From: Dehalococcoidia bacterium
Lineage (GTDB): Bacteria > Chloroflexota > Dehalococcoidia > Lucifugimonadales > UBA2985
DNA: 64,000 bases
NCBI GenBank assembly: GCA_965221925.1
Contig: OZ244924.1
Coordinates: forward strand, 1,161,352 to 1,225,351
Reading direction: 5' to 3'
A program made the position numbers and the translations under genes. This document shows, one piece after another, positions 5,323 through 59,505 of the stretch (position 1 is its first letter; the number at the start of each line of letters is the position of its first letter). A model generated the notes under the pieces. It saw only the letters and a program-made list of their open reading frames with translations, was not told where the DNA came from and searched no databases.

Positions 5323-5342
5323 AGAAAAGGAAGCAAACCGAA

Positions 5343-7699: not shown

Positions 7700-8869
<1,170 letters not shown>

Positions 8870-33659: not shown

Positions 33660-33682
33660 GTGAGGGGGTAAGAGTCTTGCCA

Positions 33683-42145: not shown

Positions 42146-42148
42146 AAC

Positions 42149-43686: not shown

Positions 43687-45303
43687 ATGCCGGGGATCAA
43701 GGTGAAGCGCCGTAAGGCGAAGGAGAACAGGGCAGCCATATACGCCCGCGTCTCCGACCAGAGCCAGGACACGGAGGACAAGACATCCATCACGGAGCAG
43801 ACGTCCGAAATGGAGGCCCACTGCGAACGCCGGGGGCTGACCGTCGTCGCCCGCTACCAGGAGGTGGGCCAGGGCTGGTCGAAGAAGCGCCCTGAGTTCC
43901 AGAGGATGCTGGCCGACGCCAAGCGCGGACGTTTCGACACCATCGTCTGCTGGAAGTCCGACCGCCTCAGCCGGGGCATGTACCCCGCCGCCGCTCTTAT
44001 GGAGGTCGTCGAGGCCCATCAGATAGAGCTTGAAGCCGTTATGGACGCCATCGACATGAAGACCTTCGGCCTCATGGCCGCCATCGGCAAGATCGAGCTG
44101 GACAACTTCAGGGAGCGCGCGTCGATGGGCAAGCGGGGCACGGCCAAGCAGGGGCGCATCCCGGTCAGCAACATCCCCTACGGATACCGCGTCCGAGACG
44201 ACGGCAGGCCCGAGATAGTGGAGTCCGAGGCCGAGGTCGTGCGGCGCATCTACCGCATGTGCGTGAAGGACGGACTGGGGGCGCGGGTGATCGGCCAGCG
44301 GTTGATGGCCGACGGCGTTCCCGCAGCCAATAATGCCAAGCGGTGGTGGGACGGTCAGGTCTACCGCGTCCTGAGCAACGAGACCTACAAGGGAACCTGG
44401 TGGTACGGCAAGGCCCGCTACATCTCGACGGAGGACGGGATACGGGTCCACGAGAAGGACAAGGAGACGTGGATACCGGTGCCGTTCCCTGAGATAGTGG
44501 ACGAGCACACCTGGGACCTGGCGCAGAGCATCATGAAGAAGCGAAGGACCCGCTCCGGGCGCAACACCAAGATATTCTACCTGTTGCAGCACATGGTCCG
44601 GTGCACCGGGTGCGGGATGCTCATGGGATGCATGGCCACCAGGAAGCGGACAGTCAAGCGCAACGGCAAGGTCTACAAGTACGAGCTGGAGACTCCGCGC
44701 CGATACTACAAGTGCTATGGAGTGCAGCATTTCCGCACGGGATGCCGGGAGCACACGATGATCCGGGCGGAACGGCTGGAGGGCCTGGTCTGGGGCCAGG
44801 TCAAGAAGGTGATGGAGAACCCCGACCTCATCGTCGCTGGAATCGAGTCCCTGGACTCCCAGGAAGGCGAGGGGTTGGAGAAGCAGATCGCCGGGACGGA
44901 GCGCGAGCTCCAGAAGGTGCAGTTCGAGGAGGACCGGGCCATCAGGCTGTACGTGTCAGAGAAGATAACCGAGGAGCAGCTGGACCGGCAGCGCAAGTTC
45001 ATCACCGAGAGGCTGGAAACTCTGAGGGCGAGGCTGGCCGACTACCGGGCCAAGGAGACCGCCTCAATTGAGAAGCGGGCGCTGGGGGAGCACGTGGTGG
45101 AATGGGCTAACAGGGTTGGCGACGGGCTGGACGACCTGCCCCAGGAGAAGCGGCGAGACGTGCTGCGGCTGCTGCTGGACGAGGTGACCATCGACGGGGA
45201 GAACAACGTCAATCTCACGCTGGCAGTCCCAACCGAAGAGTTGGTGTCGATTGGATCACCGGTATCAAATTCTCACTGTAGAATTCGTCCACGGACTCGA
45301 TGA
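43687..45303 (+). CDS. Large serine recombinase (integrase of element C); the only uninterrupted one in the window
   Basis: AAIYARVSDQSQ...VCWKSDRLSRG (resolvase domain), a recombinase domain PYGYRVRDDGRPEI, a zinc-ribbon CTGCGMLMGC...YYKCYG and a coiled coil. ATG follows AGAGGAGGGAG. The ORF crosses attR, so its last 12 codons are flank-encoded. Confidence 0.9.
   Translation: MPGIKVKRRKAKENRAAIYARVSDQSQDTEDKTSITEQTSEMEAHCERRGLTVVARYQEVGQGWSKKRPEFQRMLADAKRGRFDTIVCWKSDRLSRGMYPAAALMEVVEAHQIELEAVMDAIDMKTFGLMAAIGKIELDNFRERASMGKRGTAKQGRIPVSNIPYGYRVRDDGRPEIVESEAEVVRRIYRMCVKDGLGARVIGQRLMADGVPAANNAKRWWDGQVYRVLSNETYKGTWWYGKARYISTEDGIRVHEKDKETWIPVPFPEIVDEHTWDLAQSIMKKRRTRSGRNTKIFYLLQHMVRCTGCGMLMGCMATRKRTVKRNGKVYKYELETPRRYYKCYGVQHFRTGCREHTMIRAERLEGLVWGQVKKVMENPDLIVAGIESLDSQEGEGLEKQIAGTERELQKVQFEEDRAIRLYVSEKITEEQLDRQRKFITERLETLRARLADYRAKETASIEKRALGEHVVEWANRVGDGLDDLPQEKRRDVLRLLLDEVTIDGENNVNLTLAVPTEELVSIGSPVSNSHCRIRPRTR
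45244..45286. other. attR of the 27.6-kb island (P arm, AA core, B' arm)
   Basis: GTGTCGATTGGATCACCGGTATC-AA-ATTCTCACTGTAGAATTC. Confidence 0.75.
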
Positions 45304-45688
45304 TGGCCTCAAGGAGCCTGCCGGTGGCGGTGTCGTCGGCCTGCTCAGTGATGGAGACGACCCGGACGCCGCGCCGCCGGAGCATGGCCTTGAAGGCGAC
45401 GGCGTGCTCTCGCTTTCGGGTGAATCTCGAGAATTTCCAAACAAGAATCTCCCTGAAAGGGGACTCCGGCTTGGCCGCCTCGTCCAGCATCCTTTGGAAC
45501 TGGGGCCTATCGGCGATGCGCCCGCTCTCGGCCTCGTCCACGTACTCGCGGGCGATCAGGTAGTCGTTCTTTTCGGCGTAGTCCCTGAGCGCCCGAAGCT
45601 GGGCGGCGATGGACAGGTCCACGTCATGGCGGTCGCTGGACACTCTTGCGTAGAGGGCCACCGGCGTCAGATTGAGTCGGTCATTCAT
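45266..45688 (-). pseudogene. N-terminal 141 codons (resolvase domain) of element B's serine recombinase gene, whose 3' part is at 16399..17658
   Basis: MNDRLNLTPVALYARVSSDRHDVDLSIAAQ...VWKFSRFTRKREH...IIESVDEFYSENL, then the frame enters the island arm and stops at 45215. ATG 45688 follows AAGGAGGA. Confidence 0.85.
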
Positions 45689-45708
45689 CGGTGTCTCCTC
45701 CTTGTGCT

Positions 45709-45912
45709 TCACTCTGTCCGGTCTTGGCGGGAGCGCAACCGTTCCAGCCGCTCCCGTCTGCGCCACTCCCGTTCATCCATGAACAGGCGTATGGCCTGGC
45801 GGAGCAGCTCGCTCACGGAGAGGTCATCCTCCTTCATCACCTGGCGCACCTGCGCCTCCATCTCCGGGGGCAGGGAGAAGGTGAGGGTCTTGGACTTTCT
45901 GGGTGTGGACAC
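45709..45912 (-). CDS. Ribbon-helix-helix (CopG-like) protein, paralog of 14701..14919
   Basis: MSTPRKSKTLTFSLPPEMEAQVRQVMKEDDLSVSELLRQAIRLFMDE. It lies 20 nt upstream of the recombinase start. Confidence 0.7.
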   Translation of the reverse strand: MSTPRKSKTLTFSLPPEMEAQVRQVMKEDDLSVSELLRQAIRLFMDEREWRRRERLERLRSRQDRTE

Positions 45913-46374: not shown

Positions 46375-48567
46375 TCATTCTGCAAGTTGCTCCAGGGATG
46401 ATAACGGCCTTCTGTCTAGGGAATGGGGCGGCGGAAGTATCCATACGTCGCCCAGGATGCAATGCTCGGCAAGGGCCTCTGTGTTGGATGTGATGATAGG
46501 CACGTCATCCACCCCGTCGGCGATGTCGAGGAAGGCAGTCTCACTGCTGGGGGACTCGAACACGAAGAGCACCCGAGGCAGGTGTCCCTCGTGGTCACGC
46601 TCTGCCCAGCCGCTCTGGAAGTAGCGGCGGTAGGACTCTAGGCGTTTGGGGATTCGCTTCGGCGTCGTGGCCCGACGCTCGAACTCCAGGAGGAAGGGAC
46701 GACACCGGCCCTGGTACTCCAGGGTGAAGGAGGCGTCGGGGTGAATCACGTAGGTGGTCCAGTCGTAGCGGTAGCCGATGCTGGAGCGATGAGTGGGCAG
46801 CAGGTCGAACAGGTCGTAGTCGGGGGAGCGGGCGACCTCGGCAGACAGGGCGGCGGCGAAGCCGGTGACGCCGGCGTGATGCCGCGACTGGGAGGAGAGG
46901 ACGCGCAGGGCGGTCCCTGCGTAGACCGAAGGATTTATGTAGGAAGGTTGGGCGCTCCAGCGATCGAGGGTCAACCCCACGGCGGCCCGGTCCCTCCGGG
47001 CCAGGTACGTCAGCCCCTCGTCGGTGAGCACGTGCAGGGAGTCATCCTCCCGCGCGAGGCCATGCTGCCGCAGGGAGCGGAGCACCTGATTGACCCGGCG
47101 CAGGGTGACCCCGCCCATCAGTCCGGCAAGCTGCTCGCGGGTGCCCAGCGGCCATGCTGCCAGCAGGTTGAGGGCGTCCTTCTCGGCGCTGGTCAGCTGA
47201 ACCGAGAGGGTTGATGTGAGTTGCTCAGTAGGCTCCGGCATGGAGGCCTGCACGCCGGAGGGGTAGAGCGTGCCGGGCTTCGGCTTCGGGTTGTCACGAA
47301 GGAAGGGGTAGGACGACTCCAGCAACCGCTCCGCCCACGCTATGATACCTGCCGGGGATCCGTCGGGTGAGATACGCACTGGAGGGTTTTCGCCCAGGCC
47401 GCTACCACACTGCTGCCAGACGACCCCGGTGTGGTCTCCGGCCAGAAGCTCTCCCTCCGTCACCGCGAAGGTCCTGCAGTGCTCCCTCGGATCGCCCAGG
47501 GAGCGGATGGCCCTGCGGGTGGCCTGGTCTGCGTGGGTCAACACCAGGGTGACGGAGGGCGTCTCGAAGCTGTGCAGCCGCTCGATGCTCCTCAGGCGGT
47601 AGTGCAGATTGGCCGTGGGCAGCGTAGGCCCCTGGCGAACCAGGCCGATGGAGCGGCCCCCGGACAGGGTGAACAGCATGTCGTAGGGGCCGTTGCGGTA
47701 GTGGTCCACGCGCACGGGGTCGTTGTGGGGGTCGGCGCCGGCGATCATGGCGGCGACGCGGTAGAGCACAGCCGCGGCGTCCAGCCGCTCGGCCAGTAGC
47801 CGGAACCACTGCTTCGACACCGGGTAGGCCCCCAGCATGTGCTTTCGGCCCTTGGTGGCCGCGCCTGCGGCGGTGACGCCTTCCTCGGTCGGGAAGTAGC
47901 GGCGCTGCGGGCGAGACCCCAGCACACTCAGCTGGTGTTGTACTGAATCCACAAGACCCCGTTTGGCGAGCTTCCAAAGCCGTTCCCGCAGCGTGGATGC
48001 GGGAACGCGCCCGAACCGGGACAGTTCGTCCACGGTGGCCAGGGGTGTGCTGCACAGCAGCAGGAGCGTTTCCTCAAGACCCTCGCGCAGGGACCGCAGT
48101 GCCGGATCAGGCCGCAGGCCCTCCAGGTCGATGATGATCTCCAGCGTGGCGGCTTCCAGCGCCTCGACGTCCCCGCCGACGGAGTTGAGGACGGCGTGGG
48201 GCACAGCCCGCCCCGTGTGGCCCCGTTCGAGGAACCGCCACAGGGTGTGGCGGGACACGCCGAGGTCCTCGGCTGTCTTCCTCTGTCCATGCAGCGACGC
48301 GTAGGCGCGCACGTAGCGCCGAACTGCTCTCCTGAGGTTCGGTCCGGCTGGCGCAGCGCCGTTGATTCTTGCAGCTTGTGGATTCGTGGCTACCAATCCG
48401 ATGCTCCAACTTGCTAATGTCCCAATATCCCATCTTGAGGGGAAAACTGCTCGCATGTAATGCCCTGCAAGCCATTGTTTAGGGTGGGGTTTTGTGGTAG
48501 GGGGGAGGGGTGGCTGGGTCTGCCCCACCGCTACCGGGCAGCGAGCGGAAGGAGGCGTTAGCTTCAC
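46375..48567 (-). CDS. Replication-relaxation-type protein of element B; start uncertain (48567 or an internal ATG such as 48456)
   Basis: PLATVDELSRFGRVPASTLRERLWKLAKRGLV, a second wHTH EKDALNLLAAWPLGTREQLAGLMGV and a C-terminal HPDASFTLEYQGRCRPFLLEFERRA block, colinear with 11440..13092. Confidence 0.65.
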   Translation of the reverse strand: MKLTPPSARCPVAVGQTQPPLPPTTKPHPKQWLAGHYMRAVFPSRWDIGTLASWSIGLVATNPQAARINGAAPAGPNLRRAVRRYVRAYASLHGQRKTAEDLGVSRHTLWRFLERGHTGRAVPHAVLNSVGGDVEALEAATLEIIIDLEGLRPDPALRSLREGLEETLLLLCSTPLATVDELSRFGRVPASTLRERLWKLAKRGLVDSVQHQLSVLGSRPQRRYFPTEEGVTAAGAATKGRKHMLGAYPVSKQWFRLLAERLDAAAVLYRVAAMIAGADPHNDPVRVDHYRNGPYDMLFTLSGGRSIGLVRQGPTLPTANLHYRLRSIERLHSFETPSVTLVLTHADQATRRAIRSLGDPREHCRTFAVTEGELLAGDHTGVVWQQCGSGLGENPPVRISPDGSPAGIIAWAERLLESSYPFLRDNPKPKPGTLYPSGVQASMPEPTEQLTSTLSVQLTSAEKDALNLLAAWPLGTREQLAGLMGGVTLRRVNQVLRSLRQHGLAREDDSLHVLTDEGLTYLARRDRAAVGLTLDRWSAQPSYINPSVYAGTALRVLSSQSRHHAGVTGFAAALSAEVARSPDYDLFDLLPTHRSSIGYRYDWTTYVIHPDASFTLEYQGRCRPFLLEFERRATTPKRIPKRLESYRRYFQSGWAERDHEGHLPRVLFVFESPSSETAFLDIADGVDDVPIITSNTEALAEHCILGDVWILPPPHSLDRRPLSSLEQLAE

Positions 48568-48749: not shown

Positions 48750-49637
48750 CTATTTGACAAGGCCGAGTAGATCATTGGCAATATCGTCAGCGCTCTTTAA
48801 CGATGTGTTCAAAGCTACCTTGTCTGCCAGTGTTGGACTGTAATGGGCGACTTCATCTACCGAAACTTTGTGCCAAATCGGAAGAATCCGACTAAGCCCC
48901 TGAGCTTCAAGGGCAACAAGCCCATCAAGCTCCTTTTGTGGCCACTCCTTCTTGAAAAAGGCTTCTGAGAGAACCACCACCCCAAATCGTGAATTCACCA
49001 ACCCACGGCCAATCTCCCGACGCAGGCTGTCCCCGACTTTGAGCGTGAATTCATCGTACCAGACACTGGCTCTCTTGCTTTCAAGGGCCTCTGCTAGCTG
49101 GCGAACGAAACCTTCCTTATCTTCGCTGGCGTGGGAGATGAAGAAATCATAGTATTTTGGGCTGGGAGGATCAATCACAAGCTCCCCATGTACTTGAGCA
49201 CGTTGCATGATTTCTCCTGTAATCCGACGCTCATGTGCCTCTCGTTCTCGAATCAGGCGCTTCTGTTCTTCAGCGGCTACCCTTCTCTCCTCCGTACTCT
49301 TCCGGGCTTGACGTTCTCTCTCAGTAGCAAGCTTCTTCCGCTCTCCCTCATTCTCTCTCGCGTGACGTTCTTCATAGGAGTGCAATCTCTTGGACTTGTC
49401 GGCTATCTGACTTGCCAGATTCGCCATCCTTTTCTCTACTGTGGCAAGGTCTCTACAGGCGTTCTCCATCTCTCTGGCCCTTGACTTGAGGGTCGCGGAG
49501 TTCTTTGTTCTCGAAGCAGCAGCGTTCGCTCGGTTGACCCTCGTAAGCAGCCCGGCTTGTTTCTCTCGCTCTCGCGCCTCGCGCTCCCTTAGTGTGGCGA
49601 TCTCTCTATTGAGGTTGTCAATCTGGCTAGTAGTCAT
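48750..49637 (-). CDS. Coiled-coil + TIR-domain protein
   Basis: About 150 aa of charged heptad-like sequence are followed by YYDFFISHASEDKEGFVRQLAEALESKRASVWYDEFTLKVGDSLRREIGRGLVNSRFGVVVLSEAFFKKEWPQKELDGL (TIR, with a conserved Glu). Its ATG overlaps the helicase stop (ATGA). Confidence 0.85.
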   Translation of the reverse strand: MTTSQIDNLNREIATLREREAREREKQAGLLTRVNRANAAASRTKNSATLKSRAREMENACRDLATVEKRMANLASQIADKSKRLHSYEERHARENEGERKKLATERERQARKSTEERRVAAEEQKRLIREREAHERRITGEIMQRAQVHGELVIDPPSPKYYDFFISHASEDKEGFVRQLAEALESKRASVWYDEFTLKVGDSLRREIGRGLVNSRFGVVVLSEAFFKKEWPQKELDGLVALEAQGLSRILPIWHKVSVDEVAHYSPTLADKVALNTSLKSADDIANDLLGLVK

Positions 49638-52600
49638 TCAGGCATCACCACCTGGTAGCAAACGACTCCCAAGTCGTCCTCGGTGATGGGCTCGGGAGCT
49701 GGTGGAGCTTCTATTGGCCGCAGACCAAACCTCTCAACCACTTCAATGATTCGGCGAATGCAGTCCGTCACGCTCATTCCGCCGCCTTCATACTCCCGGC
49801 GAAGCTCCGAGAGCTTGCGGCGCACCAAGTTGTTCCTGCCGACCGAGAGGGCTTGGTCAGCCTCGTCGTACTCGTCACCGGCGGGAGCATCCGGCGACCG
49901 TAGCACGTCCAGCGCCCAACGCTGGCTGGCTGGCAATGCTGCGAACCTGGCTTCGGGGTCGAGAAGGGCGTTGTGTGCCGCGCAGATGTCGGCTGCTGCT
50001 ATGGCAAACATCCGCTCCAAGTCGAGGCTGTCGGGAATGGGGCAGCCAGGCTGCTCTTGCGGGTCTATCAGCCGCAGCATCGGCAGATTTTCCCTGTACA
50101 GGATCTGTCCAGATTGCGACACCATACGCCAGTACCGCTCATCTCTACGCGTCCGGCATGCGAAGAACACTGTAGACTCTGCCAGTGTCGGTGACCGCTG
50201 CACGAAAGCGGCGCCTATGCCCCAAGGCATGTCCCGGAGCCTGGCAATCTCGCCCTCTTCGGCAGCGCGGCGAAGATATGAGCGGAAGAGCTCTCCGGCG
50301 AAGGCGGAGCTGGTCTCCCCGCCACTCTCCTGCTCGTCCAGCAGGGTGGCATCCCCCCTGGCGAGACGTTCGGCAAAGGTGGTCAGGTCAGCGTACACCC
50401 GGGATTCCGCCTCTACGTTGGCAAGTACCGGAGTTTCCATGCCCACCGAGGCGTTCGCCGCCATGATCTTTACCTGGAGCTTGGCCTCCAACTTTAGCAG
50501 CCGGTCCAAGTCACCCTGCTTGGGAAGTAGGGTGTAGAGATATGCCGTGTCGTGCGGGCTGCGCAGGCGGATGATGCGTCCGTTGCGCTGCACCACACGT
50601 TGAGGATTCCAGGGCATATCGAAGGAGAGCACCGCCTGGGCCTGCTGCAAGTTCTGCCCCTCGGAGAGGATGTCAGTGCTGATAATCACGTCTACTTCGC
50701 CGCCGTCCGGCCGATAGCCTTGCTCTCCCGTCACCGACTCCGGACAAAATCGTTCTAGCTCTCTCGTGCGGGCGTCGGCGCTGGTTTCCGAGCCAATGGC
50801 CACCGTCCATTTGCGGTCTCCCAGCAGGTCCGGTTGGCTCTCGATTCGCTCCTTCAGATAGGTCGCCGTATCCTGGAATGCCGTAAAGACGGCGACTTTA
50901 CGCGACGGCGTTGTCGCCATCACTGCTCTGAGCGTGTCCAGTTTGGGGTCAGGTCTGTTCTTCAAGCTCTCCAACCGTGCTGACATGGTTGACAGTGCAT
51001 CCCAGTCTTTCTGCAAGTCGGTCAAGAACTGGTCGTTGAAACTATCGGCGGCAATCCCACCTTCCGAGCCTGCCAATGCCTCGTCGATCAGGTCGGCGCT
51101 AAGGAATGTGTCGTCCTCTCCCGCATTGCCAACCAGGTCCCTAATGGCTTCCGGCGGGGGAACCGCTCCACGCTCTGCGATGACCCTGAGCATCACTTCG
51201 TTCCCATCCCGCATCCTGTTCACAGTTTGCAGGGCCGCATACCAGGACGACTCGAATCGTTTCAGCAGTTGCGACTGCATGAGTCCGGCCAGCGCTTCTT
51301 CCGATGCCGACTCTCCCTGTTTGTCCAACCTGTAGGCCGATGGGCGGTAACGCGCCATCGTCAGCCCGTCGATTCCGTCGTAGATGGCTTGCACGATTCC
51401 AGGGTGCGCTCTGTCCAAGTCGTAGCGGCATTCGTGCAGTTCTGGCTCCGGAAACTTCACCGGCGTTCCGTCGGCGAAGCGCTCGTCGCGATACCGCTTC
51501 TTGATGAAGGCCCGATCACGCCGCACTGTCAGTGCATCGATTAGCGGGAAGAGCTTGGCTTCCGACAGGTTCTCGGACTTGGAGGCCCCGGCATCGGCGA
51601 AGAACTTCCGCAGGCTCGGAATCCTCAGCGGCTCACCGTTGAATCTCCCATCGTGCCGACCGAACAGCAGGAAGAGATTGTGCAGGTCCCATAGGGAGTT
51701 GTTGACCGGAGTCGCGGTCAGAAGCAGCAACTTCTTCGGCGTTCCTCCCATAAGCCGGTCCAGCACCGCATACCAGGTGTTGTCCACGTTGCGGTAAGCG
51801 TGGGCCTCGTCGATGATGACGAAACGGTACACGTCCTTGTTCACTGGCAGGACCCTTTGCCCTCCATCAGGGGACAGTTGCCGGTCCTGGGCCAGCTGCT
51901 GGTAGGACACCACGGTCCCCGGCAGGTTCTCCTCAGCCAGGCGCTGCTGCCAGAGGCGGTCCCGGAGCTGGGCCGGGGAGATGACCAACACGTGCTGGCC
52001 CAGGTCACGGGTGTGTTCGCGGATGAACTGGACGCCTATCTCCGTCTTGCCCATGCCAACGCCATCGGCGTAGAGAACGCCACCGTAGCGGTCAAGGATA
52101 CGCTTTGCCCGCGCCAGCCCGTCCCGCTGGAAAGCGGTGAGCGTATGCAGATCGGGTAGAGGTCCATCGTCTTCTAGCTCGCCCTCGTAAAGCTCCAGCA
52201 GGGCGCGTAGGAAGACGGTCTGAGGGTCGCTCTCCAAGGCAGGGGGCCGCAGCAGCTCTAGCAGCTCCTCACGAAAGTCCTGGGCGTCGTCCCAGAGGCG
52301 CTGATACCAGTCCAATGCCCTGCCGACGACGTTGGGTTGGTAATGCACCATGCCCAGCTCGAGATTGGCGACCAAGCCGCCCTGTGTCAGGTTGGCCGAC
52401 GACACCAGCGCCGCCCCCGGCCCTACCGGAGACCCGGCGTTGCTCAGTTCGCCGATGACGTAGGCTTTGCCGTGGAGGAAGCGCCGGACGTAGCGCCGCG
52501 CCGCAACGCCGTCGGACTCGAAGAAGCGGGTCACCCGCTCCAGGACGGCTCGCCGGGCGGTGGGAAAGGCCGAGAAGTCGCGTTGGCGGCGTAGCGCCGA

Positions 52601-52876
52601 GACAGATTGCTCGAAACGGTCGGCGACGGTTTCCCCCGCCGGGCCGATCAAGGCCTCCGGCACTGCACCTATCAATAAGCGTGTAGGCCGTTCCGGCTCC
52701 GCCGCTATCCTGGTCAGAGCGTCCAGCCCCTCTAGGCCAACGTAGCCCGTGGCAACGCTCAGAGGCCCCGCGTAGTGCTCCGCCAGCCACGCCAACGCCT
52801 GCTGGTGGTTGCCGTAGTCAACGTTGTCCACCAACTCGAAGGGGCCGTGCTGGGATGGATGGCTTTGGCTCGTCAT
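49634..52876 (-). CDS. PLD-family nuclease domain fused to an SNF2-family helicase
   Basis: PLD motif is FLHGKAYVIGE...ALVSSANLT. SNF2 motifs are YADGVGMGKTEIG, VIIDEAHAYRN, LLLLTATPVNN, STDILSEGQNLQ and QRNGRIIRLRS. Confidence 0.9.
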   Translation of the reverse strand: MTSQSHPSQHGPFELVDNVDYGNHQQALAWLAEHYAGPLSVATGYVGLEGLDALTRIAAEPERPTRLLIGAVPEALIGPAGETVADRFEQSVSALRRQRDFSAFPTARRAVLERVTRFFESDGVAARRYVRRFLHGKAYVIGELSNAGSPVGPGAALVSSANLTQGGLVANLELGMVHYQPNVVGRALDWYQRLWDDAQDFREELLELLRPPALESDPQTVFLRALLELYEGELEDDGPLPDLHTLTAFQRDGLARAKRILDRYGGVLYADGVGMGKTEIGVQFIREHTRDLGQHVLVISPAQLRDRLWQQRLAEENLPGTVVSYQQLAQDRQLSPDGGQRVLPVNKDVYRFVIIDEAHAYRNVDNTWYAVLDRLMGGTPKKLLLLTATPVNNSLWDLHNLFLLFGRHDGRFNGEPLRIPSLRKFFADAGASKSENLSEAKLFPLIDALTVRRDRAFIKKRYRDERFADGTPVKFPEPELHECRYDLDRAHPGIVQAIYDGIDGLTMARYRPSAYRLDKQGESASEEALAGLMQSQLLKRFESSWYAALQTVNRMRDGNEVMLRVIAERGAVPPPEAIRDLVGNAGEDDTFLSADLIDEALAGSEGGIAADSFNDQFLTDLQKDWDALSTMSARLESLKNRPDPKLDTLRAVMATTPSRKVAVFTAFQDTATYLKERIESQPDLLGDRKWTVAIGSETSADARTRELERFCPESVTGEQGYRPDGGEVDVIISTDILSEGQNLQQAQAVLSFDMPWNPQRVVQRNGRIIRLRSPHDTAYLYTLLPKQGDLDRLLKLEAKLQVKIMAANASVGMETPVLANVEAESRVYADLTTFAERLARGDATLLDEQESGGETSSAFAGELFRSYLRRAAEEGEIARLRDMPWGIGAAFVQRSPTLAESTVFFACRTRRDERYWRMVSQSGQILYRENLPMLRLIDPQEQPGCPIPDSLDLERMFAIAAADICAAHNALLDPEARFAALPASQRWALDVLRSPDAPAGDEYDEADQALSVGRNNLVRRKLSELRREYEGGGMSVTDCIRRIIEVVERFGLRPIEAPPAPEPITEDDLGVVCYQVVMPE

Positions 52877-52888
52877 GTCACCAACCGC

Positions 52889-53674
52889 CTAGTCTGACTT
52901 GAGAATGGGGTACTGCCCGGACAACGGGTGACAACCGTTCTTTGCATGCAGGATAAACCGGTCTATCACTTGCCGTGCGGTTTTTATTACGTCACTTCGC
53001 TCACTTCCAGAGAGGTGTTTCGCCTCTCCATGGTGCTGGTATTTGCTGAAGTCTTCTAGCTTTGTAGTTAGTGCCTGGTCAATGCGCAGACATTCCCTCA
53101 TACTGATCCATGATTTCTTGGCTCTAGCCTTCTCCTTATCTTCTGAGTTAACGAAATGCTGTCTGAGGCTCTCGATGGCCCGGTAGGCAAACAGGCCTGT
53201 GTCATGGGGCATTCGATACGCTCTTCCGACGTCTCCCAGAGCGCGGCGAAGCGGGTCCGTTATAGAGGCACTATTAGATCCCACTGAAAATAGAACCTCG
53301 GCAATCTCCTCGTACTTCTTTTCGGTCTCTTCGGTCCAGCTAAAGTTGGATCCTGTTCTATACTCGAACTCTGGCGACAACCCATTATTCGCACATACTG
53401 CCAATCGGATCTCCATATCAAGACCTTTCCTTGCCGCATATCCGTATGCATCAACAAGGCTTCTCGCGATGGTGTCAATGCAGTTGCGTAGCGTGGCGAT
53501 GTCCTTGACCTCTGTGTCACTATGCGCCGCCACTGATATTTGAGATTGGTGAATTGATAGCGTCACCCCAAGGTCAAATTCAACATCGGGAAACTTAACA
53601 TGGCCGCTGACCGGAGGAAGGGTCAGTCCCAGGCGCTCCGGTATAACGACCCCATAGAAAATGTATGTGAACAT
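52889..53674 (-). CDS. 261-aa protein of unknown function
   Basis: Clean ORF with a purine-rich stretch upstream, 22 nt after the methylase stop and 12 nt before the helicase start. Visibly AT-richer than its neighbours. I recognise no motif. Confidence 0.7.
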   Translation of the reverse strand: MFTYIFYGVVIPERLGLTLPPVSGHVKFPDVEFDLGVTLSIHQSQISVAAHSDTEVKDIATLRNCIDTIARSLVDAYGYAARKGLDMEIRLAVCANNGLSPEFEYRTGSNFSWTEETEKKYEEIAEVLFSVGSNSASITDPLRRALGDVGRAYRMPHDTGLFAYRAIESLRQHFVNSEDKEKARAKKSWISMRECLRIDQALTTKLEDFSKYQHHGEAKHLSGSERSDVIKTARQVIDRFILHAKNGCHPLSGQYPILKSD

Positions 53675-53696
53675 TTCTGTTATCCTTCTCCCTCAC

Positions 53697-56600
53697 CTAC
53701 AGCCCCTCGAACTTCTCCAGAACCTGCCGCCGGTAGGCGGGGCTGACGGCGTTCTCCGTGAAGTCGGTGAAGATGAAGCGCAGCTCGTCCTCGGTCAGGC
53801 CGTAGGCGCGGGCAACCAGTGCGTCTATCTCCGCTCGCATGTCGTTGTGCTGAGCCTCGGTCAACACCCCGCACTCCACCCCGGCCTCCACCGCGAACTC
53901 GGCGAACCGATCATCCACGCAGGACAGCCGGGCAGCCAACCTACCGATGTGCTCCCACGGCGTGTTGTCTGGAGGCGGGAGGGTGAGACTGTTGAGAACG
54001 TAGAAGTTGAGATGCGTTTCGACGTATCTTCGCGCCACCCAGTCGAAGGGGACACTGTTCAACACACCCAGCAGATTCGCCTGCGAGATAGGGTCCCATC
54101 CCGCAAGCACGAGGTATGGTGCGCTATTCGTGAGTGGGGTTGTGGGGGGTATGAGACAGGCTATCGATGTGCGAGAGTCGGTAGCTCGCCCTATGTCCCG
54201 GAACGCTACGCGGCAGTGGTTCATCGGATGGGTCTTGGGATCGGCTAGGACCTCTTTGGAAAACATGCGCTTGAAGACGGGAGAGCGCATCCGTTTGGTC
54301 TGCACGAAGTCCAAAACCTCATCCCGTACAGAGTATCCAGCGGGTTCATTGCCATGCGGCTCGTATTGGTTGAAGGAACGGCCCTTCCACACGGGGGTGC
54401 CTTGGGAATGGGAGAAAAGGGCGCGCTGCTGTGTCTCATCTAGCTCCCTATGCGGAACTGCATGAGACACAGCAGCGCGCCCTTTTGCGGATTTTTGCAT
54501 TTCAGGGCTTTGAAGTGCATCGAACTGGATGCCGCGCCGCAGCTTGGCGAGCACGTCGGCGTGCTTCTGGCTTGGCATGAGTGGCACTACATGGGCGCTA
54601 CCCAGGGAGGACGTAGGGATGGTAATACCATCGCCTTGAGCGGATGCCTGAAACTCGTCAAGGCTTGCTGACGGACCGGTGACTTGAAAGGCGGCCTGAC
54701 CGGTTGGAGTGTGGCGTTGGCTAGTCAGCAGCGCAATCGTGTATTGTGGATGAATAGTGAACGCCCAACTTCGGTTATTCAGCAGAAGGTCGAGACGCCG
54801 CACGCTGTTACGGGTAAAGAGCCATTGCCTGAAGCGCCTGGCCCCTTCCGCAAGAAACGCACTTCTGGGCAGCACCACGCCCAGCCGCCCATCTTGCCTG
54901 ACGAGGTGGCTGTATCGCTCGCAAAAGAGTTGGTAGAGGTCTTTGTCGCCCACTCCCTGAAGCTTGTATCCCCCGCTCTCGGAGAAAAATCCCCTGACGG
55001 TCGCCAACTGTTGCTGCTGGGATCCAAACTCTCCACGCCAGTCGGGTTGCTGCTCATCGAGCGCGGCGATGCGCTTTCTCCTATCGGCCAAACTCGGCAG
55101 TCCACGCAACCCGGGTTCCCGCAGCGCGTAGAAGGCAAGCTCTTCGACCGTAACTTCGTTCCACGGTGGGTTGCCGACCACTACGTCGAAGCCGGGGCGG
55201 TCGCGGTGGAAGACGTTGGGGAACTCCAGGGGCCAGTGGAAGAAACTGAATCGATCGGCAACGCCGCCCGCCTCTTCGATGGCCACGCGGACATCGGCGG
55301 ATGCAGCGCCTTCGACGATGGCGTCGGCGTTGATTTCCAGCGTGTGGCGAGCGCCGTCCAACCCCAGCGGTTCTGCCGCCCATAGGTCGAAGGCGGCGCG
55401 CAGCCCAACGGTGGCCTCCTCCCTTCGGACTCCCAACTCCTCGGACTGCTTGACCTCTTCAGGTGTACGGTCGGGAACGGCGGCCTGTTCCCGCTGTAAC
55501 TGTGCGGCTTGCTCCATAGCATTCCGCACCGTCTGGCCGGTGAAGAGCGGGCTGTCGCTGGCGCCGACGACGGATGGGTCGGCCACGCCGATGAGGGCGT
55601 CGCCGCACTTGAGGTTGCTGCCGAGGTAGGAGAGGGCTAGGCCGGGCACGAAGGACGCGAGCCACAGGGTGACGTTGGCAACCTCCACGGCCATGGGCGA
55701 AAGGTCTACGCCGTAGATGCAGCGTTTGAGTATGAGCCTCCGCAGCAGGTCGCCGTCCTCCGGCTGTTGGGCAATCGGCCCGCTGTCCTGGCTCAACTCG
55801 CTGAGCAGCTGGGCAATGCCGGGCAGGCCGCCTACCTCGGCGAGGAAGATTTCGATGCGGTCGGCGATCATGTCCAGGGCCGCCGTGAGGAAGTGGGCGC
55901 TTCCCATCGCCGGATCCACCACCGAGAAATCGAACAGCTGGCGCGCTGCTTCATTCGGGTCACGGCCGGCTACCTGTTTGACCTCGGCCAAGTGGTCCTC
56001 AAGAGCGGGCAGCAATGAATGGTTGAGCAGGTGAGACACAAACTCGTGGCGTGTATAGAACACGCCTACGGCCTTGCGTCCACCCGCTTCGGCTTGGTAG
56101 TAGAGCTGCGCCCTAGTCACCTCCGGGCGCTCACCGGCGCGGAGTGGCCGGAATACGTCCTGCCTGGCGTCGTAGGCCAGGTCTTCGGGAGCGTGGGTCA
56201 GCCGAAAGGTGAGCAACGCTTCGTAGATGGCTCCAAGGTGGCCGACTTGCAACCCGGCGTAGTCCAGTCCCGGAGCGTCGGGTTTGTCCGTCTCGTAGGA
56301 GATGGCCGTGAGCGCAGGAGCGAGATAGACATCGGCTATTTCGGCCCGTTCCAGCAATGCGCTGCCAGGGAAGCCATCGGCAGCGAAGAGGCTGCCGTTG
56401 TAGGCGGGTACCCCGGCCGAGCGGTCTCCTGTGCGCACCATCCGCACCAGCGTCCGCATCCGATCCCATCGCTGTGTTGCCCTCCGGCTGTAGGATGCCC
56501 GGGCCAGCCGGGAGTCCTCGGCAAGCTGGCGTGCGCTGTAGGGCCGGTAGGCCGCCGAGCCGATGGGCAGATAACCGCGTGCCTCGGTGTGCAGCAGGAA

Positions 56601-57674
56601 CATGAACCGGAACACCAGCGTCAGCGCCGCCTCCTCTATCTGCCGGAGTTGCTCCCGGTCACGCATTTCCGCGCCCTGCGATTCAAGATACTCGCCGAGC
56701 CCCCGTGCGATATTGGGCAGCGCGTCCTTGATGAGCCGCTCCTCAAGTCCCTTTCGCAGCTCCTCTCCAAAGTCCTTCGCCTCACCGACCCACGCGGTCA
56801 GCCAGCCGTTCTCCTTCAGCGATTCGGGCGCGAGCAGGCCGAGGTAGAGGCGGTCCTTCCGCTCCAACTCGCCAAGGTCTATCTCCACGTGTTGCCCGGT
56901 CGCCGGTCCTACCGGAGGCCGCCGCTGAAACAGCCGATAGCGGCCCTCTGCTGTCAATACGCCCCAATGCGCCCCGTGCTGCCCGCAGTCCGCCAGCACC
57001 AAGCCCTCGGGCAGCTCTCCGTTGTCCGTGAGACGGCTGAACTGCGAGGCGTCCCGGTGAGGATGCACCACGGCAACTGGGGCATTATCGTGCCTCAGTA
57101 AATAGCCGCGCTGTGGGAGCTGCTCGACCTGATAACCCATGCCTTGGAATAGCGTCCGCCATGGCATGTTGCCGGTAGACGCGATACCTTCTACGGTACC
57201 GGACAATCGCTGCTCGTTGATGGGCCAGCGCAGACGTTCCCGCAAGAAGTGAGGGGTGAGGAGGTCTTTGACCCGCAGACCGGGGACGACAGCCTCTTCA
57301 AGACGGCTGAACTCCCTGGCCAGGAAGGACGCTGCTTCGCGGGCCGCCAGACTGCGGCTCGTCTCCAACAGATCGAGGACTCGGCTGACTGGCAACTCTC
57401 GAACGGGCCGGGCATCCTGCGGCCCGGCGACCCGGACTTTGTCTACGTCGTCCGACCGGGCCAGCAAGACAACCGGATAGGCTTGACGGCCTTTCCGTGC
57501 TTCCCACAGCCTCCGTAGTTCCACATCGCTCGCTGCATCATCGAACCACAGAAGATGGTAAGCAGGCGTCTCCCAGACCGTTGCGGACTGCCCTGCCTGC
57601 GACGTCCAGTCGCGCCCAAAGCCGAATGTGGCTTCGAGGTATGCGGACGTCTGATTGGCGGTAGGTGAGGTCAT
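53697..57674 (-). CDS. 1325-aa gamma-class N6-adenine DNA methyltransferase (Eco57I/PglX/DrmMI-like architecture)
   Basis: Motif I is FSVVDPAMGSAHFLTAALD and motif IV is FDVVVGNPPWNEV, with long N- and C-terminal extensions. Confidence 0.85.
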   Translation of the reverse strand: MTSPTANQTSAYLEATFGFGRDWTSQAGQSATVWETPAYHLLWFDDAASDVELRRLWEARKGRQAYPVVLLARSDDVDKVRVAGPQDARPVRELPVSRVLDLLETSRSLAAREAASFLAREFSRLEEAVVPGLRVKDLLTPHFLRERLRWPINEQRLSGTVEGIASTGNMPWRTLFQGMGYQVEQLPQRGYLLRHDNAPVAVVHPHRDASQFSRLTDNGELPEGLVLADCGQHGAHWGVLTAEGRYRLFQRRPPVGPATGQHVEIDLGELERKDRLYLGLLAPESLKENGWLTAWVGEAKDFGEELRKGLEERLIKDALPNIARGLGEYLESQGAEMRDREQLRQIEEAALTLVFRFMFLLHTEARGYLPIGSAAYRPYSARQLAEDSRLARASYSRRATQRWDRMRTLVRMVRTGDRSAGVPAYNGSLFAADGFPGSALLERAEIADVYLAPALTAISYETDKPDAPGLDYAGLQVGHLGAIYEALLTFRLTHAPEDLAYDARQDVFRPLRAGERPEVTRAQLYYQAEAGGRKAVGVFYTRHEFVSHLLNHSLLPALEDHLAEVKQVAGRDPNEAARQLFDFSVVDPAMGSAHFLTAALDMIADRIEIFLAEVGGLPGIAQLLSELSQDSGPIAQQPEDGDLLRRLILKRCIYGVDLSPMAVEVANVTLWLASFVPGLALSYLGSNLKCGDALIGVADPSVVGASDSPLFTGQTVRNAMEQAAQLQREQAAVPDRTPEEVKQSEELGVRREEATVGLRAAFDLWAAEPLGLDGARHTLEINADAIVEGAASADVRVAIEEAGGVADRFSFFHWPLEFPNVFHRDRPGFDVVVGNPPWNEVTVEELAFYALREPGLRGLPSLADRRKRIAALDEQQPDWRGEFGSQQQQLATVRGFFSESGGYKLQGVGDKDLYQLFCERYSHLVRQDGRLGVVLPRSAFLAEGARRFRQWLFTRNSVRRLDLLLNNRSWAFTIHPQYTIALLTSQRHTPTGQAAFQVTGPSASLDEFQASAQGDGITIPTSSLGSAHVVPLMPSQKHADVLAKLRRGIQFDALQSPEMQKSAKGRAAVSHAVPHRELDETQQRALFSHSQGTPVWKGRSFNQYEPHGNEPAGYSVRDEVLDFVQTKRMRSPVFKRMFSKEVLADPKTHPMNHCRVAFRDIGRATDSRTSIACLIPPTTPLTNSAPYLVLAGWDPISQANLLGVLNSVPFDWVARRYVETHLNFYVLNSLTLPPPDNTPWEHIGRLAARLSCVDDRFAEFAVEAGVECGVLTEAQHNDMRAEIDALVARAYGLTEDELRFIFTDFTENAVSPAYRRQVLEKFEGL

Positions 57675-57713: not shown

Positions 57714-57742
57714 TTGACATTATCCAACTATCACTGTACAGT
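57714..57742 (+). promoter_or_regulatory. Near-consensus sigma70-type promoter upstream of abiEi
   Basis: TTGACA (57714-57719), a 17-nt spacer, then TACAGT (57737-57742), in the 116-nt divergent gap between the methylase and AbiEi genes. Confidence 0.5.
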
Positions 57743-57790
57743 TGCAAGTAGTTGCTCTTTTGTCTGGGTGCAAAGTTTGGAGTCCGTCCA

Positions 57791-58630
57791 ATGACTACTA
57801 GCGCAAGGCCCAAGCAATCTCTGGTCGGCATCGAGTTGGTCCGGCTGCTCGCCTATGAGGGGGACCGCATCTTCACCACGGACCGGGCTCGGGAACTTGC
57901 GCCTCGTGTAGGCCTAAAGAATGCCTACCTCGGAGAGTCACTGTACCATCTCCGGAGGAACAATTGGATCGTCCCACTGCGCCGAGGGCTTTATGCGCTG
58001 TCCCCCACTGTTCCTGGCGTCGCGGCCGCCCACGAATTCGAGATAGCTATGGCCCTAGTCGATCCCGCCGCAATCTCCCACTGGTCGGCCTTGCACCATC
58101 ACGGGCTGACTGAACAGATACCCAGGGACGTATTTGTCCTAACGACAACCGGAACTTGGATCCCTCGCCCTAGGAAGAACCGGCAAGGACAGCTTGGAGG
58201 TGGGTACCAGGTGGGGGATACCACGTACCGATTCCTTCAGATCAAGCCCAACCACTTCTTCGGCGCTGAGAAGGTGTGGGTCGGCGATGCCCGCGTGTCC
58301 GTCACAGACCTGGAGCGCACCTTGCTGGACGGGTTGTACACGCCCCAACGCTGCGGCGACTTCGCAGAAGTGCTCCATGCCTTCCAGCTAGGAATGAATC
58401 GGCTGAACACCGAGCGCATCACTGAGTATGCCATCAGACTAGGCGTGACGACGGCCAAGCGCCTGGGATGGGTGCTCGAAGCTCAGGGAGCCGCCTCGTC
58501 CGAACTCGAAAAGCTGTCCTCACTGCCCATCAAGGGCTACCGCAAGCTAGATGCTGCGGGGCCTCGAAAGGGACCTTGCAACAGTCACTGGATGGTCCAG
58601 GAGAACCTGCCGGGAATGGTTGCGACATGA
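57791..58630 (+). CDS. abiEi: AbiEi-family antitoxin/transcriptional regulator
   Basis: MTTSARPKQSLVGIELVRLLAYEGDRIFTTDRARELAP...LRRNNWIVPLRRGLYAL. ATG 57791 lies 9 nt after GGAG. Its stop overlaps the next start (ATGA). Confidence 0.75.
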   Translation: MTTSARPKQSLVGIELVRLLAYEGDRIFTTDRARELAPRVGLKNAYLGESLYHLRRNNWIVPLRRGLYALSPTVPGVAAAHEFEIAMALVDPAAISHWSALHHHGLTEQIPRDVFVLTTTGTWIPRPRKNRQGQLGGGYQVGDTTYRFLQIKPNHFFGAEKVWVGDARVSVTDLERTLLDGLYTPQRCGDFAEVLHAFQLGMNRLNTERITEYAIRLGVTTAKRLGWVLEAQGAASSELEKLSSLPIKGYRKLDAAGPRKGPCNSHWMVQENLPGMVAT

Positions 58631-59505
58631 GACCTCTCCGCACGCGCCTTCAGGAAGCACGCCAGCGTCTGGGCATCCCCTGGGAGGCACTCGAACGGGA
58701 CTATCTGTTGTCTTGGGTGTTGGCCGGGATTAGCCAGACGCCGGTGCTCCAGAACACGCTGGTCTTCAAAGGCGGCACAGCCCTCAGGAAGTGCTACTTC
58801 GGCGACTACCGCTTTTCCGAAGACCTGGACTTCTCTGCACTGGAAGGCGTCCCCACCGGACAGGAGATGGAGCGATTGGTGATGGAAGCGTGCGAGACTG
58901 CCGTTAGACTGTTGAACGAATACGCTCCCGTAGAGATCGTCTGCGAGCGTTACACGGAGCGCGAGCCGCATCCTGGTGGCCAGGAAGCCTTCACGATTCA
59001 CGCTAGGTTCCCGTGGCAGAGCCGTCCCCAGACCCGCGTCATGATCGAGATCACGTTGGACGAGAGAATCCTGCGGCCAGCCGAGAAGCGGCAGGTCATC
59101 CACGAGTACGGGGAACCGCTCGACGCGGAAGTGAAGGTGTATTCCCTCGAAGAGATCGTTGCCGAAAAGCTGCGAGCGCTCCTGCAACAGGCGGAAATGT
59201 TCGAGAGGAGAGGTTGGAGCCGCTCACGCGCCCGCGACTACTACGACCTCTGGCGGGTGCTCGGGACTTACGGAGACCAGATGGCCCTAGTGAGCTTCGA
59301 CTCGCTGCTGCGTGAGAAGTGCGGCGTCCGAGATGTCACCTTTACAGGCCCGGAGGACTTCTTACATGACGCCATGCTTGCTTATGTCGAGGAGACTTGG
59401 GAGCAGTGGCTCGGCCCGCTGGTGCCGGACTTGCCAATATTCGAGACTGTGATCAGCGAACTGCGGCCACAGGTGGCGCAGCTGGTTCGTTCAGGCGGCG
59501 CATAG
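58627..59505 (+). CDS. abiEii: AbiEii/DUF1814 nucleotidyltransferase toxin
   Basis: MRPLRTRLQEARQRLGIPWEALERDYLLSWVLAGIS...LVFKGGTALRKCYFGDYRFSEDLDFS. Confidence 0.85.
   Translation: MRPLRTRLQEARQRLGIPWEALERDYLLSWVLAGISQTPVLQNTLVFKGGTALRKCYFGDYRFSEDLDFSALEGVPTGQEMERLVMEACETAVRLLNEYAPVEIVCERYTEREPHPGGQEAFTIHARFPWQSRPQTRVMIEITLDERILRPAEKRQVIHEYGEPLDAEVKVYSLEEIVAEKLRALLQQAEMFERRGWSRSRARDYYDLWRVLGTYGDQMALVSFDSLLREKCGVRDVTFTGPEDFLHDAMLAYVEETWEQWLGPLVPDLPIFETVISELRPQVAQLVRSGGA

Follow-up and report, generated by a model that had tools for sequence, protein, structure and literature searches.

A four-gene operon in a Dehalococcoidia genome

A 64,000-nucleotide stretch of the genome of a Dehalococcoidia bacterium (GenBank assembly GCA_965221925.1, contig OZ244924.1, positions 1,161,352 to 1,225,351 of the forward strand; hereafter the window) carries a minus-strand operon of four genes, which we call A, B, C and D in their order of reading and whose coordinates and sizes are collected in Table 1. 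Gene A codes for a large N6-adenine DNA methylase, B for a protein of the DUF8168 family, C for a PLD nuclease fused to an SNF2 motor, and D for a TIR protein with a predicted coiled coil. A preliminary description of this DNA, made from the letters alone, had placed four open reading frames (ORFs) here with junctions of 22 nt (A-B), 12 nt (B-C) and a 4-nt ATGA overlap that joins the stop codon of C to the start codon of D, and we found them as placed; every motif that it quoted from A, C and D was also present in the translations. Its view of the operon as one of a defence type holds. It had gone further, however, and proposed that the four genes make up a single undescribed system, in which the TIR protein is a dedicated effector and the fourth gene an integral part, and it is this proposal that the comparison with related loci changes.

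Judged from the layout of the sequence, the four genes are almost certainly carried on one transcript, and D is translationally coupled to C. A promoter-like site of sigma-70 type precedes A, divergent from a plus-strand site that faces a pair of AbiE genes, and no minus-strand terminator-like site was found within the operon; both results come from consensus searches and are weak evidence, the promoter search having returned three sites where 2.0 were expected. The preliminary description had noted that the two small genes were visibly AT-richer than the two giant ones, and the guanine-plus-cytosine (GC) contents agree (0.50-0.52 vs 0.62-0.63): A and C have 0.629 and 0.623 and B and D 0.503 and 0.519, with a window average of 0.626, and at third codon positions (GC3) the values are 0.74-0.75 for A and C and 0.54-0.55 for B and D. 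The modular assembly that it had suggested from this difference is borne out by what follows, and on compositional grounds the low GC of B and D does appear to reflect a foreign origin of these two genes, which we refer to below as cargo.

The conserved unit is the pair of A and C

A scan with C, made with one genome per species, identified 44 close loci in which C was 55-91% identical to that of the window; these 44 are the genome loci within a set of about 55 related loci in all. Their hosts were nearly all Dehalococcoidia or other Chloroflexota metagenome-assembled genomes (MAGs), the rest being Entotheonella, Binatia, Acidimicrobiia and Gemmatimonadota. When the four window proteins were searched against these loci by tblastn, 40 of the 44 proved to have A directly upstream of C and on its strand. 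The spacer between the two genes measured about 10-50 nt in 14 of these loci, 142-235 nt in three and 0.4-2.7 kb in 23. The conserved unit is the A+C pair, and the proposal of one system with its own TIR effector and an integral fourth gene was not upheld, since only these two genes of the four are conserved together.

The MAGs that carry the pair appear to be sponge-associated, and one of them (L029, accession MPND) is a SAR202 bin (bin90) from the sponge Aplysina aerophoba. The paper that describes the Aplysina aerophoba bins reports COG4422 ('bacteriophage protein gp37') to be sponge-enriched, and restriction-modification (R-M) genes (endonucleases, helicases and methylases) to form the largest sponge-enriched network. 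Across the Dehalococcoidia, Entotheonella, Binatia, Acidimicrobiia and Gemmatimonadota MAGs (L003-L046) the A+C pair was 65-91% identical at the amino-acid level, which implies recent inter-phylum transfer. The modules were also often caught in decay: an insertion sequence (IS) element interrupts A in L001 (8153-9267; the same contig as L004), where C is intact, another interrupts C in L145 (6959-8200), and L148 has a split C and no methylase gene.

Two positions hold exchangeable cargo

The interval between A and C, which we call slot 1, was empty in about 14 loci. Counting only ORFs on the same strand as A and C, we found in it a DUF5131 gene in eight loci, usually with a partner of ~365 aa that resembles PDC-M30A (the arrangement matches the two-gene PDC-M30 and PDC-M41 of PADLOC), a Uma2 endonuclease gene (PDC-S03) in seven, a PIN gene in two, a gene for a trypsin-like peptidase (Trypsin_2) in two, and genes for two further proteins of no assigned family (246 aa and 147 aa). 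DUF5131, a frequent cargo of this slot, we take to be equivalent to COG4422. A DUF8168 gene was present in slot 1 of the window, L001/L004 and L149 alone; L001/L004 and L149 are two contigs from one metagenome sample, their DUF8168 elements are near-identical to that of the window, and L149 has A, B and C all intact and no D. L003, whose A, C and D are intact, has a 142-nt spacer between A and C (9859-10000) that holds an internally deleted DUF8168 gene. What is left of this gene, a remnant of ~90 nt, comprises the leader, roughly 15 codons from the start, roughly 14 codons from the end, and the stop codon. The common ancestor of the window and L003 therefore had the order A-B-C-D, and B was lost later in L003. 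Among the loci examined, the full set of four genes was found in this window alone.

In L003 and L011 the position after C, slot 2, is taken by a 91%-identical TIR gene that overlaps C in the same way; L037 has a remnant of one. The 4-nt overlap of C and D was seen in all seven linked loci, among them L003, L011, L060, L145, L146 and L148. The order of genes in L060 is methylase, trypsin-like peptidase, helicase and TIR; in L145 and L146 it is methylase, PIN, helicase and TIR, followed by GmrSD; L148 is decaying. At least five states of slot 1 accompany D in these loci (DUF8168, deleted DUF8168, DUF5131 with its partner, trypsin-like peptidase, and PIN). Two further loci, L061 (TIR 79% identical; 7900-7998) and L147 (76%; 2182-2265), have the last 28-33 codons of C ahead of an intact TIR ORF, and so A and C have been deleted there. 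More distant TIR genes, 67% identical in L062 and 56% identical in L063 (Parvularcula), stand alone in unrelated surroundings, where no trace of a helicase gene was found. The nine TIR contexts of at least 74% identity all descend from a helicase-linked arrangement, a link that is stable in that subclade. The preliminary description had conceded that its idea would fall if the small genes were never linked to the helicase and methylase pair elsewhere. Because the TIR gene is linked to the helicase gene in at least seven other loci, the four-gene idea is weakened rather than refuted.

Other genes occupy slot 2 elsewhere: a CAP12/Pycsar-effector TIR (PF10137) with RNase H in L014 (13284-14537), a HepT-like gene in L023, Shedu SduA_C in L008, PIG-L in L009, and genes of no assigned family. 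A 486-aa ORF of L028 stands at the same slot-2 place as the Shedu gene of L008. In blastn comparisons of the window with L008 and L005, homology resumed in the Replic_Relax gene past the differing slot-2 gene, which makes slot 2 a segment that can be replaced while its flanks, the end of C and Replic_Relax, are conserved. On a neighbour-joining tree of C the TIR-bearing loci were scattered among TIR-less loci, and the cargo of slot 1 was partly clade-specific. The presence of B is independent of that of D: L149 has A-B-C without a TIR gene, L003 has a deleted B with the TIR gene, and L011, L060 and L146 have the TIR gene with other cargo in slot 1. Both belong to the many stand-alone defense genes that take one another's place in the A+C pair.

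Proteins A and C

Protein A has the methylase motif I (DPAMGSAHF, within VVDPAMGSAHFL at residue 585) and the stretch VVGNPPW at residue 832, which contains motif IV (NPPW at 834), and it matched Eco57I of Pfam (6.6e-19). Its best PADLOC model was REase_MTase_IIG (PDLC03620, 6e-119), which covered residues 47-1321. The PADLOC DrmMI models matched residues ~515-839 only, and the score against BREX_1_MTaseX of NCBIfam was 36.9 bits (cut-off 500). Both the gamma-class N6-adenine methylase motifs and the fused, large architecture of Type IIG enzymes are present. No sequence relative of A was found in the PDB. In a conservation profile of 32 orthologues residues ~850-1200 were the least conserved, which fits the expectation for a specificity domain, and we presume from this pattern that they form the target-recognition region. 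Among the invariant residues of the N-terminal 520 aa, inspected by eye, there was no obvious PD-(D/E)XK motif.

Protein C begins with a PLDc_2 domain (residues 106-195), followed by SNF2-rel_dom and Helicase_C (Pfam), and its motifs are FLHGKAYVI (133), VSSANLT (158), GVGMGKT (272), DEAH (356), TATPVNN (387) and QRNGRIIR (763). It has a single HKD-type PLD motif (H135, K137); one-motif PLD nucleases work as dimers, and since one HKD motif is only half of a PLD active site, the analogy implies that C would be dimeric. The C-terminal ~250 aa are without a characterized domain, and Pfam recognized no DNA-reading or modification-reading domain in C. The best PADLOC match was C3a139 'HKD+Snf2' (1.7e-42), a cluster first listed as a gene adjoining type III CRISPR loci (PMC6546367). 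Against DISARM_DrmD of NCBIfam C scored 105 bits (cut-off 610), and a match to the DrmA model (8e-14) was partial and limited to the Helicase_C part. More than 1600 homologs of C were found, the top 120 clusters being 75-100% identical. An AlphaFold2 (AF2) model of C built with 44 close homologs had a mean predicted local distance difference test score (pLDDT) of 48.6, too poor for a fold search.

The cargo proteins D and B

Protein D has the motifs FISHASEDK (166), WYDEF (193) and WPQKELDGL (232) and matched TIR_2 of Pfam (1.6e-20). The preliminary description had seen its TIR domain as the effector of a system not yet known, which does not stand: D belongs to a known family and matched PDC-S66 of PADLOC with 5.6e-90 over residues 2-294 of 295. 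Its TIR domain aligned nearly without gaps with those of TcpB/BtpA (Brucella), PdTIR (Paracoccus) and AbTIR (Acinetobacter), with phmmer E-values of 1e-57 to 1e-46; the PDB entries matched were 4lzp, 4lqc, 3h16, 7uwg and 8g83, and the alignment with 4lzp reaches into the helix before the TIR domain. The N-terminal 160 residues of D are rich in E, R, A and K; we predict this region to be a coiled coil, which would give D the full architecture of TcpB, PdTIR and AbTIR. The activity of AbTir needs the catalytic E208 as well as W204 and the BB-loop residues G174 and S176 (bioRxiv 10.1101/2022.05.07.491051), with which E236, W232 (WxxxE), G202 and S204 of D align. The match of D to the ThsB1 model was at the level of the domain (2.7e-39). 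By sequence, D belongs over its full length to the NADase family of TcpB, PdTIR and AbTIR, and NADase activity is predicted for it. What D shares with this family is the full-length PDC-S66 match, the catalytic glutamate, the WxxxE motif and the BB-loop glycine and serine. It differs in its setting, since the characterized members are solitary genes, whereas the subclade of D has the 4-nt overlap with the 3' end of a restriction-type helicase gene.

Protein B is a member of the Pfam family DUF8168, a membership that we read from a 98%-identical protein (P0001) with precomputed matches to PF26505 and PF26504 because the local Pfam copy with which the four proteins were scanned is without DUF8168 models. 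Both models were also matched, again in precomputed form, by P0002, P0124 and P0393, and a hidden Markov model (HMM) that we built from 151 representatives of the family scored the copy in L004 with 7e-87. A word-index homology search returned two relatives of B, and a full HMMER search returned 825 representative relatives, nearly all of them stand-alone proteins of ~250 aa. An AF2 model of B (pLDDT 92.6) places a sheet of five strands and a helix at the N-terminus and a helical bundle at the C-terminus. In a Foldseek search with this model the sole meaningful match was the HEPN protein 2hsb (probability 1.0, target-normalized TM score 0.64, E-value 0.04, 119 columns), and nothing meaningful was found among viral structures. 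The near-invariant residues of DUF8168 are R165, E168, W189, R214-H215-G216 and R226 and include no canonical HEPN Rx4-6H motif; in B itself a glycine replaces the conserved R150 and a histidine the conserved R214. The model suggests that B is possibly a HEPN-like RNase, which we treat as a lead because the conserved residues lack Rx4-6H and because B has both arginines replaced.

Elsewhere, 80 metagenome loci with DUF8168 relatives were gathered, and the 109 nearest neighbor genes from 44 non-redundant ones share no recurrent family, so that DUF8168 genes stand alone and have no set partner. The neighbors in these 44 loci are mostly housekeeping genes, with methylase, Type ISP or Cas1 genes now and then. 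A PIG-L deacetylase gene adjoins the DUF8168 gene in L002 (69-1759), and a PIG-L gene also follows C in L009 (13358-14065); this recurrence may be a coincidence or an unrecognized cargo family. Literature searches on DUF8168 and on PDC-S66 turned up nothing useful. Two other roles for B were considered and set aside. As an antitoxin or adaptor for the TIR protein, B would be hard to reconcile with the deletion of its gene in L003, where the TIR gene is intact, or with the four other slot-1 states in which the TIR gene occurs; as a counterpart of the DUF3780-like reader of Type-2 BREX-related (BR) systems it failed to match any model of the local Pfam copy, even at E-values up to 10.

A covarying hairpin inside gene A

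Within the most variable third of A lies an inverted repeat, the RNA of which is predicted by RNAfold to have a folding energy of -61.6 kcal/mol. A comparable hairpin is present in 29 of the 31 orthologs of A, where the encoded peptide differs, and it stands out as an island of nucleotide conservation at which BLASTN alignments between divergent loci restart. In an alignment of 30 sequences the covariation was very strong: 95.4% of the cells were paired and 18 of the 31 pairs had changed on both sides; none of 500 shuffles reached the observed values, and when the 3' partners were slid only 35-49% were paired. G-U pairs made up 11 of 750 cells in the outer stem, a near-absence that suggests selection acting on the DNA or favoring a perfect duplex. 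Template switching may 'correct' palindromes by mutation and could contribute to the pairing. The hairpin belongs to no Rfam family, the sub-threshold matches being to microRNA-precursor models of the generic long-hairpin kind. We also considered a repeated mobile element and rejected it, as there is a single copy in the window.

The element and its neighborhood

The loci closest to that of the window share a backbone that consists of the divergent AbiEii/AbiEi genes, A, slot 1, C, slot 2 and Replic_Relax, followed by genes for a resolvase or large serine recombinase. AbiE homologs lie upstream of A in eight or nine loci (L003, L004, L005, L008, L011, L014, L037 and L044, with a weak match to AbiEi only in L036), and recombinase homologs lie downstream of the module in L005, L008, L011, L028, L061, L145-L147 and others. 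To judge from their domains, the serine recombinase and the resolvase likely serve the integration and mobility of the operon-bearing element.

By its gene content the window looks like a conjugative or mobilizable element, and a complete Hma (BREX-related) system is recognizable in it from model matches to HmaA, HmaB and HmaC. With Hma, the TraG/VirB4-like ATPase gene and the AbiE genes around it, the operon thus lies in a mobile element loaded with defense genes. A megablast search of the PLSDB plasmid collection with the operon gave no match. Inside the Hma locus, between HmaA and HmaB, there are genes for an ABC/OLD-like ATPase (26025-28751; weak matches to Ppl, mad3 and LmuB) and for a protein with Schlafen AlbA_2 and HATPase_c_4 domains (28761-29990). 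The same pattern of embedded extras occurs twice in the window, in the operon and in the Hma locus.

Table 1. Positions in the window of the operon, its signals and the neighboring genes discussed in the text
Feature	Position	Strand	Remarks
Gene A	53697-57674	-	1325 aa, ATG start; Eco57I-family N6-adenine DNA methyltransferase; core component 1
Gene B	52889-53674	-	261 aa, ATG start; DUF8168 protein; cargo, slot 1
Gene C	49634-52876	-	1080 aa, ATG start; PLD nuclease::SNF2 ATPase/translocase; core component 2
Gene D	48750-49637	-	295 aa, ATG start; TIR protein with predicted coiled coil; cargo, slot 2
Promoter-like site, TTGCAA-17-GATAAT	57719-57747	-	Sigma-70-like consensus match, 45 nt upstream of the start of A
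Inverted repeat	54415-54486		In A, residues ~1063-1087; 72 nt, 25-bp outer stem and 6-bp inner stem
AbiEi-like and AbiEii gene pair	57752-59505	+	Divergent from A; AbiEii 1.6e-40 (Pfam)
Replic_Relax protein gene	46375-48567	-	Pfam 4.7e-08; downstream flank of slot 2
Resolvase-type gene	45215-45766	-	Pfam
Large serine recombinase gene	43687-45303	+	Pfam Resolvase, Recombinase, Zn_ribbon_recom
DUF1016_N protein gene	42085-43041	+	PADLOC PDC-S02
HmaC, DUF499 ATPase	33656-36472	+	1e-92
HmaB, methylase	30540-33011	+	4e-66
HmaA, SNF2 helicase with NOV_C nuclease-like end	22628-26065	+	6.5e-172
TraG/TraC/VirB4-like ATPase gene	4866-7616	+

Comparison with named systems

Neither PADLOC nor NCBIfam, the libraries used here, assigned all four genes to one system, and on this point, as on the absence of DrmA/DrmB, PglZ/BrxC and ThsA from the operon and its flanking ORFs, we agree with the preliminary description. 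The locus is not DISARM, BREX, Type-2 BR or Thoeris. The likeness to class 1 DISARM (DrmA, DrmB, DrmC, DrmD and DrmMI) consists of an SNF2 helicase, a PLD nuclease and a large N6-adenine methylase with partial matches to DrmD, DrmC and DrmMI. In the operon, however, the PLD nuclease is fused to the helicase and the best model for A is a Type IIG one; neither DrmA nor DrmB (DUF1998) is among the ORFs of the operon or its flanks, and the scores against DrmD and DrmMI stay below those of family members. For BREX, neither PglZ nor BrxC was found and the PglX-type match was below its cut-off. Thoeris shares with the operon a TIR protein, as the domain-level ThsB1 match indicates, but no ThsA (SIR2/Macro-SLOG) or other effector that senses isomers of cyclic ADP-ribose (cADPR) was found in the operon or the neighboring ORFs. 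We rejected DISARM, BREX and Thoeris as identities of the locus on these grounds.

The operon is most like the Type-2 BR systems in its effector. Theirs, too, is a Swi2/Snf2 helicase with an HKD (PLD) endonuclease at its N-terminus and has an N6-adenine methylase as its partner; these systems are read as R-M-like, and auxiliary or backup effectors are often embedded in their loci (PMC12839542). They also need a DUF499 AAA+ ATPase, which is a core component of all BR systems, DUF3780, which is found in 98% of taxa, and a DUF1156-type methylase (PMC12839542). TIR is not among the auxiliary effectors of that paper, the text of which does not contain the word (PMC12839542). The operon has the HKD-Swi2/Snf2 fusion but neither DUF499 nor DUF3780, and A is of the Eco57I type, not the DUF1156 type. 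The sole DUF499 gene of the window belongs to the Hma locus 13 kb away, and of about 50 related loci two have a DUF499 homolog within 10 kb.

Type III and Type ISP enzymes, together with SauUSI, share with the A+C pair the combination of a methylase or recognition part, an SF2 motor and a nuclease, a combination from which cleavage is expected to depend on translocation. The pair differs from the architecture of Type III and Type ISP enzymes in having an SNF2 motor rather than Res/ISP, in having a PLD rather than a PD-(D/E)XK nuclease, and in dividing over two proteins the functions that Type ISP enzymes hold in a single chain. SauUSI is a PLD nuclease fused to an SF2 helicase that works as a restriction enzyme (cited in PMC12839542). 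In the EcoprrI-PrrC and HEPN R-M operons, an effector gene unrelated to restriction likewise stands inside an R-M operon (PMC3710099). The difference is that physical control of PrrC by its R-M partner has been demonstrated there, whereas the cargo here is exchangeable among many families.

Interpretation

We think it probable that the operon consists of a restriction-like core, A and C, and of interchangeable cargo that acts autonomously. The core would be a two-gene, ATP-dependent R-M-like unit on an integrative or mobilizable element with two exchange positions, in which A would mark host DNA at a short motif and supply the sequence recognition, and a dimer of C would translocate on unmodified DNA and cut it. 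In the window, slot 1 would hold the gene of a possible HEPN-like RNase and slot 2 that of a coiled-coil TIR NADase of the TcpB/AbTIR type; B and D would be co-transcribed but optional second-line effectors of abortive infection, each with its own trigger and outside the restriction mechanism. The autonomy of the cargo families is suggested because the TIR genes of L062 and L063 are solitary and the neighbors of DUF8168 are heterogeneous. There are precedents for such an arrangement in PrrC of EcoprrI and the HEPN genes of R-M operons, which are embedded second-layer effectors (PMC3710099), and in BREX and BR loci, in which auxiliary or backup effectors are embedded (PMC12839542). The Hma locus of the window, with its two additional genes between HmaA and HmaB, is a further example.

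Several observations weigh against this reading. The methylation and restriction roles of A and C are ones that we infer, and A may carry a nuclease domain of its own. The IS-split A beside an intact C in L001/L004 could fit a methylase-dependent nuclease and fits decay equally. The invariant 4-nt overlap of C with the TIR gene, together with the position of slot 1 inside the operon, could mean a tighter coupling than co-carriage, and the TIR-helicase link is stable in the subclade of at least 74% identity. For B, the HEPN assignment is a lead from a single Foldseek match (E-value 0.04) to a protein family whose canonical Rx4-6H motif is missing, and with R150 and R214 replaced the protein may be inactive or altered.

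Such a coupling would follow if the cargo, above all the TIR protein, is bound and held inactive by the A/C complex and fires when an anti-restriction protein disables the core; D would then deplete NAD+ or produce a cADPR isomer, and B would cleave RNA. The ATGA overlap in every one of the linked loci is what such guarding would lead one to expect, as is the placing of cargo within the operon, flanked by the genes for methylase and nuclease, and all TIR genes of at least 74% identity come from a helicase-linked ancestor, including those of L061 and L147 with 28-33 codons of C left. PrrC is held inactive by its type Ic R-M partner (PMC3710099), and the backup effectors of BREX and BR loci have been proposed to be semi-autonomous, needing input from the host system (PMC12839542). 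However, intact TIR ORFs remain after the loss of A and C in those same two loci, the distant members of the family are solitary, and the slots take families as unrelated as Shedu, Uma2, PIN and the DUF5131 pair, for which a common docking surface is unlikely. We regard guarded cargo as unlikely on balance, though it is the main rival. A related and bolder conjecture, which we would also call unlikely and hold with a little less confidence, is that a TcpB/AbTIR-class TIR protein has been wired to a PLD::SNF2 motor, its translation and perhaps its activity depending on C, as a suicide backup for the case that restriction is blocked. If so, bacterial Tcp TIR proteins, long read as virulence factors, would have a native role, the locus would be an R-M platform with guard-controlled effector slots, and the palindrome in A could be a recombination or expression switch of the same design.

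Returning to the probable core-and-cargo reading, we weighed it against three more distant explanations. That A and C are separate, A being a Type IIG enzyme with its own N-terminal nuclease and C an independent SauUSI-like nuclease-helicase that travels along, would agree with the full-length REase_MTase_IIG match of A, with the ability of PLD-helicase fusions such as SauUSI to work as single proteins (cited in PMC12839542) and with the persistence of C in L001/L004, where A is interrupted; yet the two genes are adjacent in nearly all of the close loci, often with a spacer of 10-20 nt, C has no recognizable DNA-reading or modification-reading domain, and no PD-(D/E)XK stands out by eye among the invariant residues of the first 520 aa of A, so that we find their independence improbable. 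Slightly less can be said for D as a factor of host interaction, as first proposed for Brucella TcpB/BtpA, rather than an effector against phages. The carriers appear to be sponge symbionts, in keeping with the Aplysina aerophoba SAR202 bin and with other host names, e.g., Entotheonella, that fit a sponge habitat, and the TIR domain of D is close to TcpB/BtpA (phmmer E-values of about 1e-53 to 1e-57). D is coupled, however, to a restriction-type nuclease-helicase on an element packed with defense genes (AbiE, Hma and PDC-S02), relatives have Shedu, HepT or a Pycsar-type TIR gene in its slot, and no secretion signal or partner turned up, none having been looked for specifically; we think a host-interaction role very improbable. 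The obligate four-gene system, in which recognition of unmethylated DNA by A and C would be signaled to a dedicated TIR protein with B as an essential adaptor, draws on the operonic spacing with its translationally coupled last pair, on the B remnant of L003, which places A-B-C-D in the ancestor of that locus and the window, and on the gene content, which no named system has. Against it stand the deletion of B in L003 with A, C and D intact, the absence of D from the intact A-B-C of L149, the ~14 loci in which A and C are adjacent with slot 1 empty, the lack of a TIR gene in most of the 44 loci, and the restriction of the complete set to this window, and we give it hardly any credence. No support was found for an undescribed four-gene TIR system, and the four genes of the window are one of many combinations.

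Significance

Cloning the operon as a 'four-gene system' would test a lineage-specific combination, and the unit worth testing is the A+C pair with its interchangeable cargo. The pair is an uncharacterized restriction-like module that does without the ATPase of its nearest described relatives. Its two slots give candidate defense genes by their position, including DUF8168 and two families of no assigned function. The module, the logic of its slots, the stable joining of helicase and TIR genes and the covarying palindrome are each worth testing, and the overlap of the helicase gene with a TIR gene of the TcpB/AbTIR type offers a setting in which that well-studied TIR family may be tested in its own bacteria.

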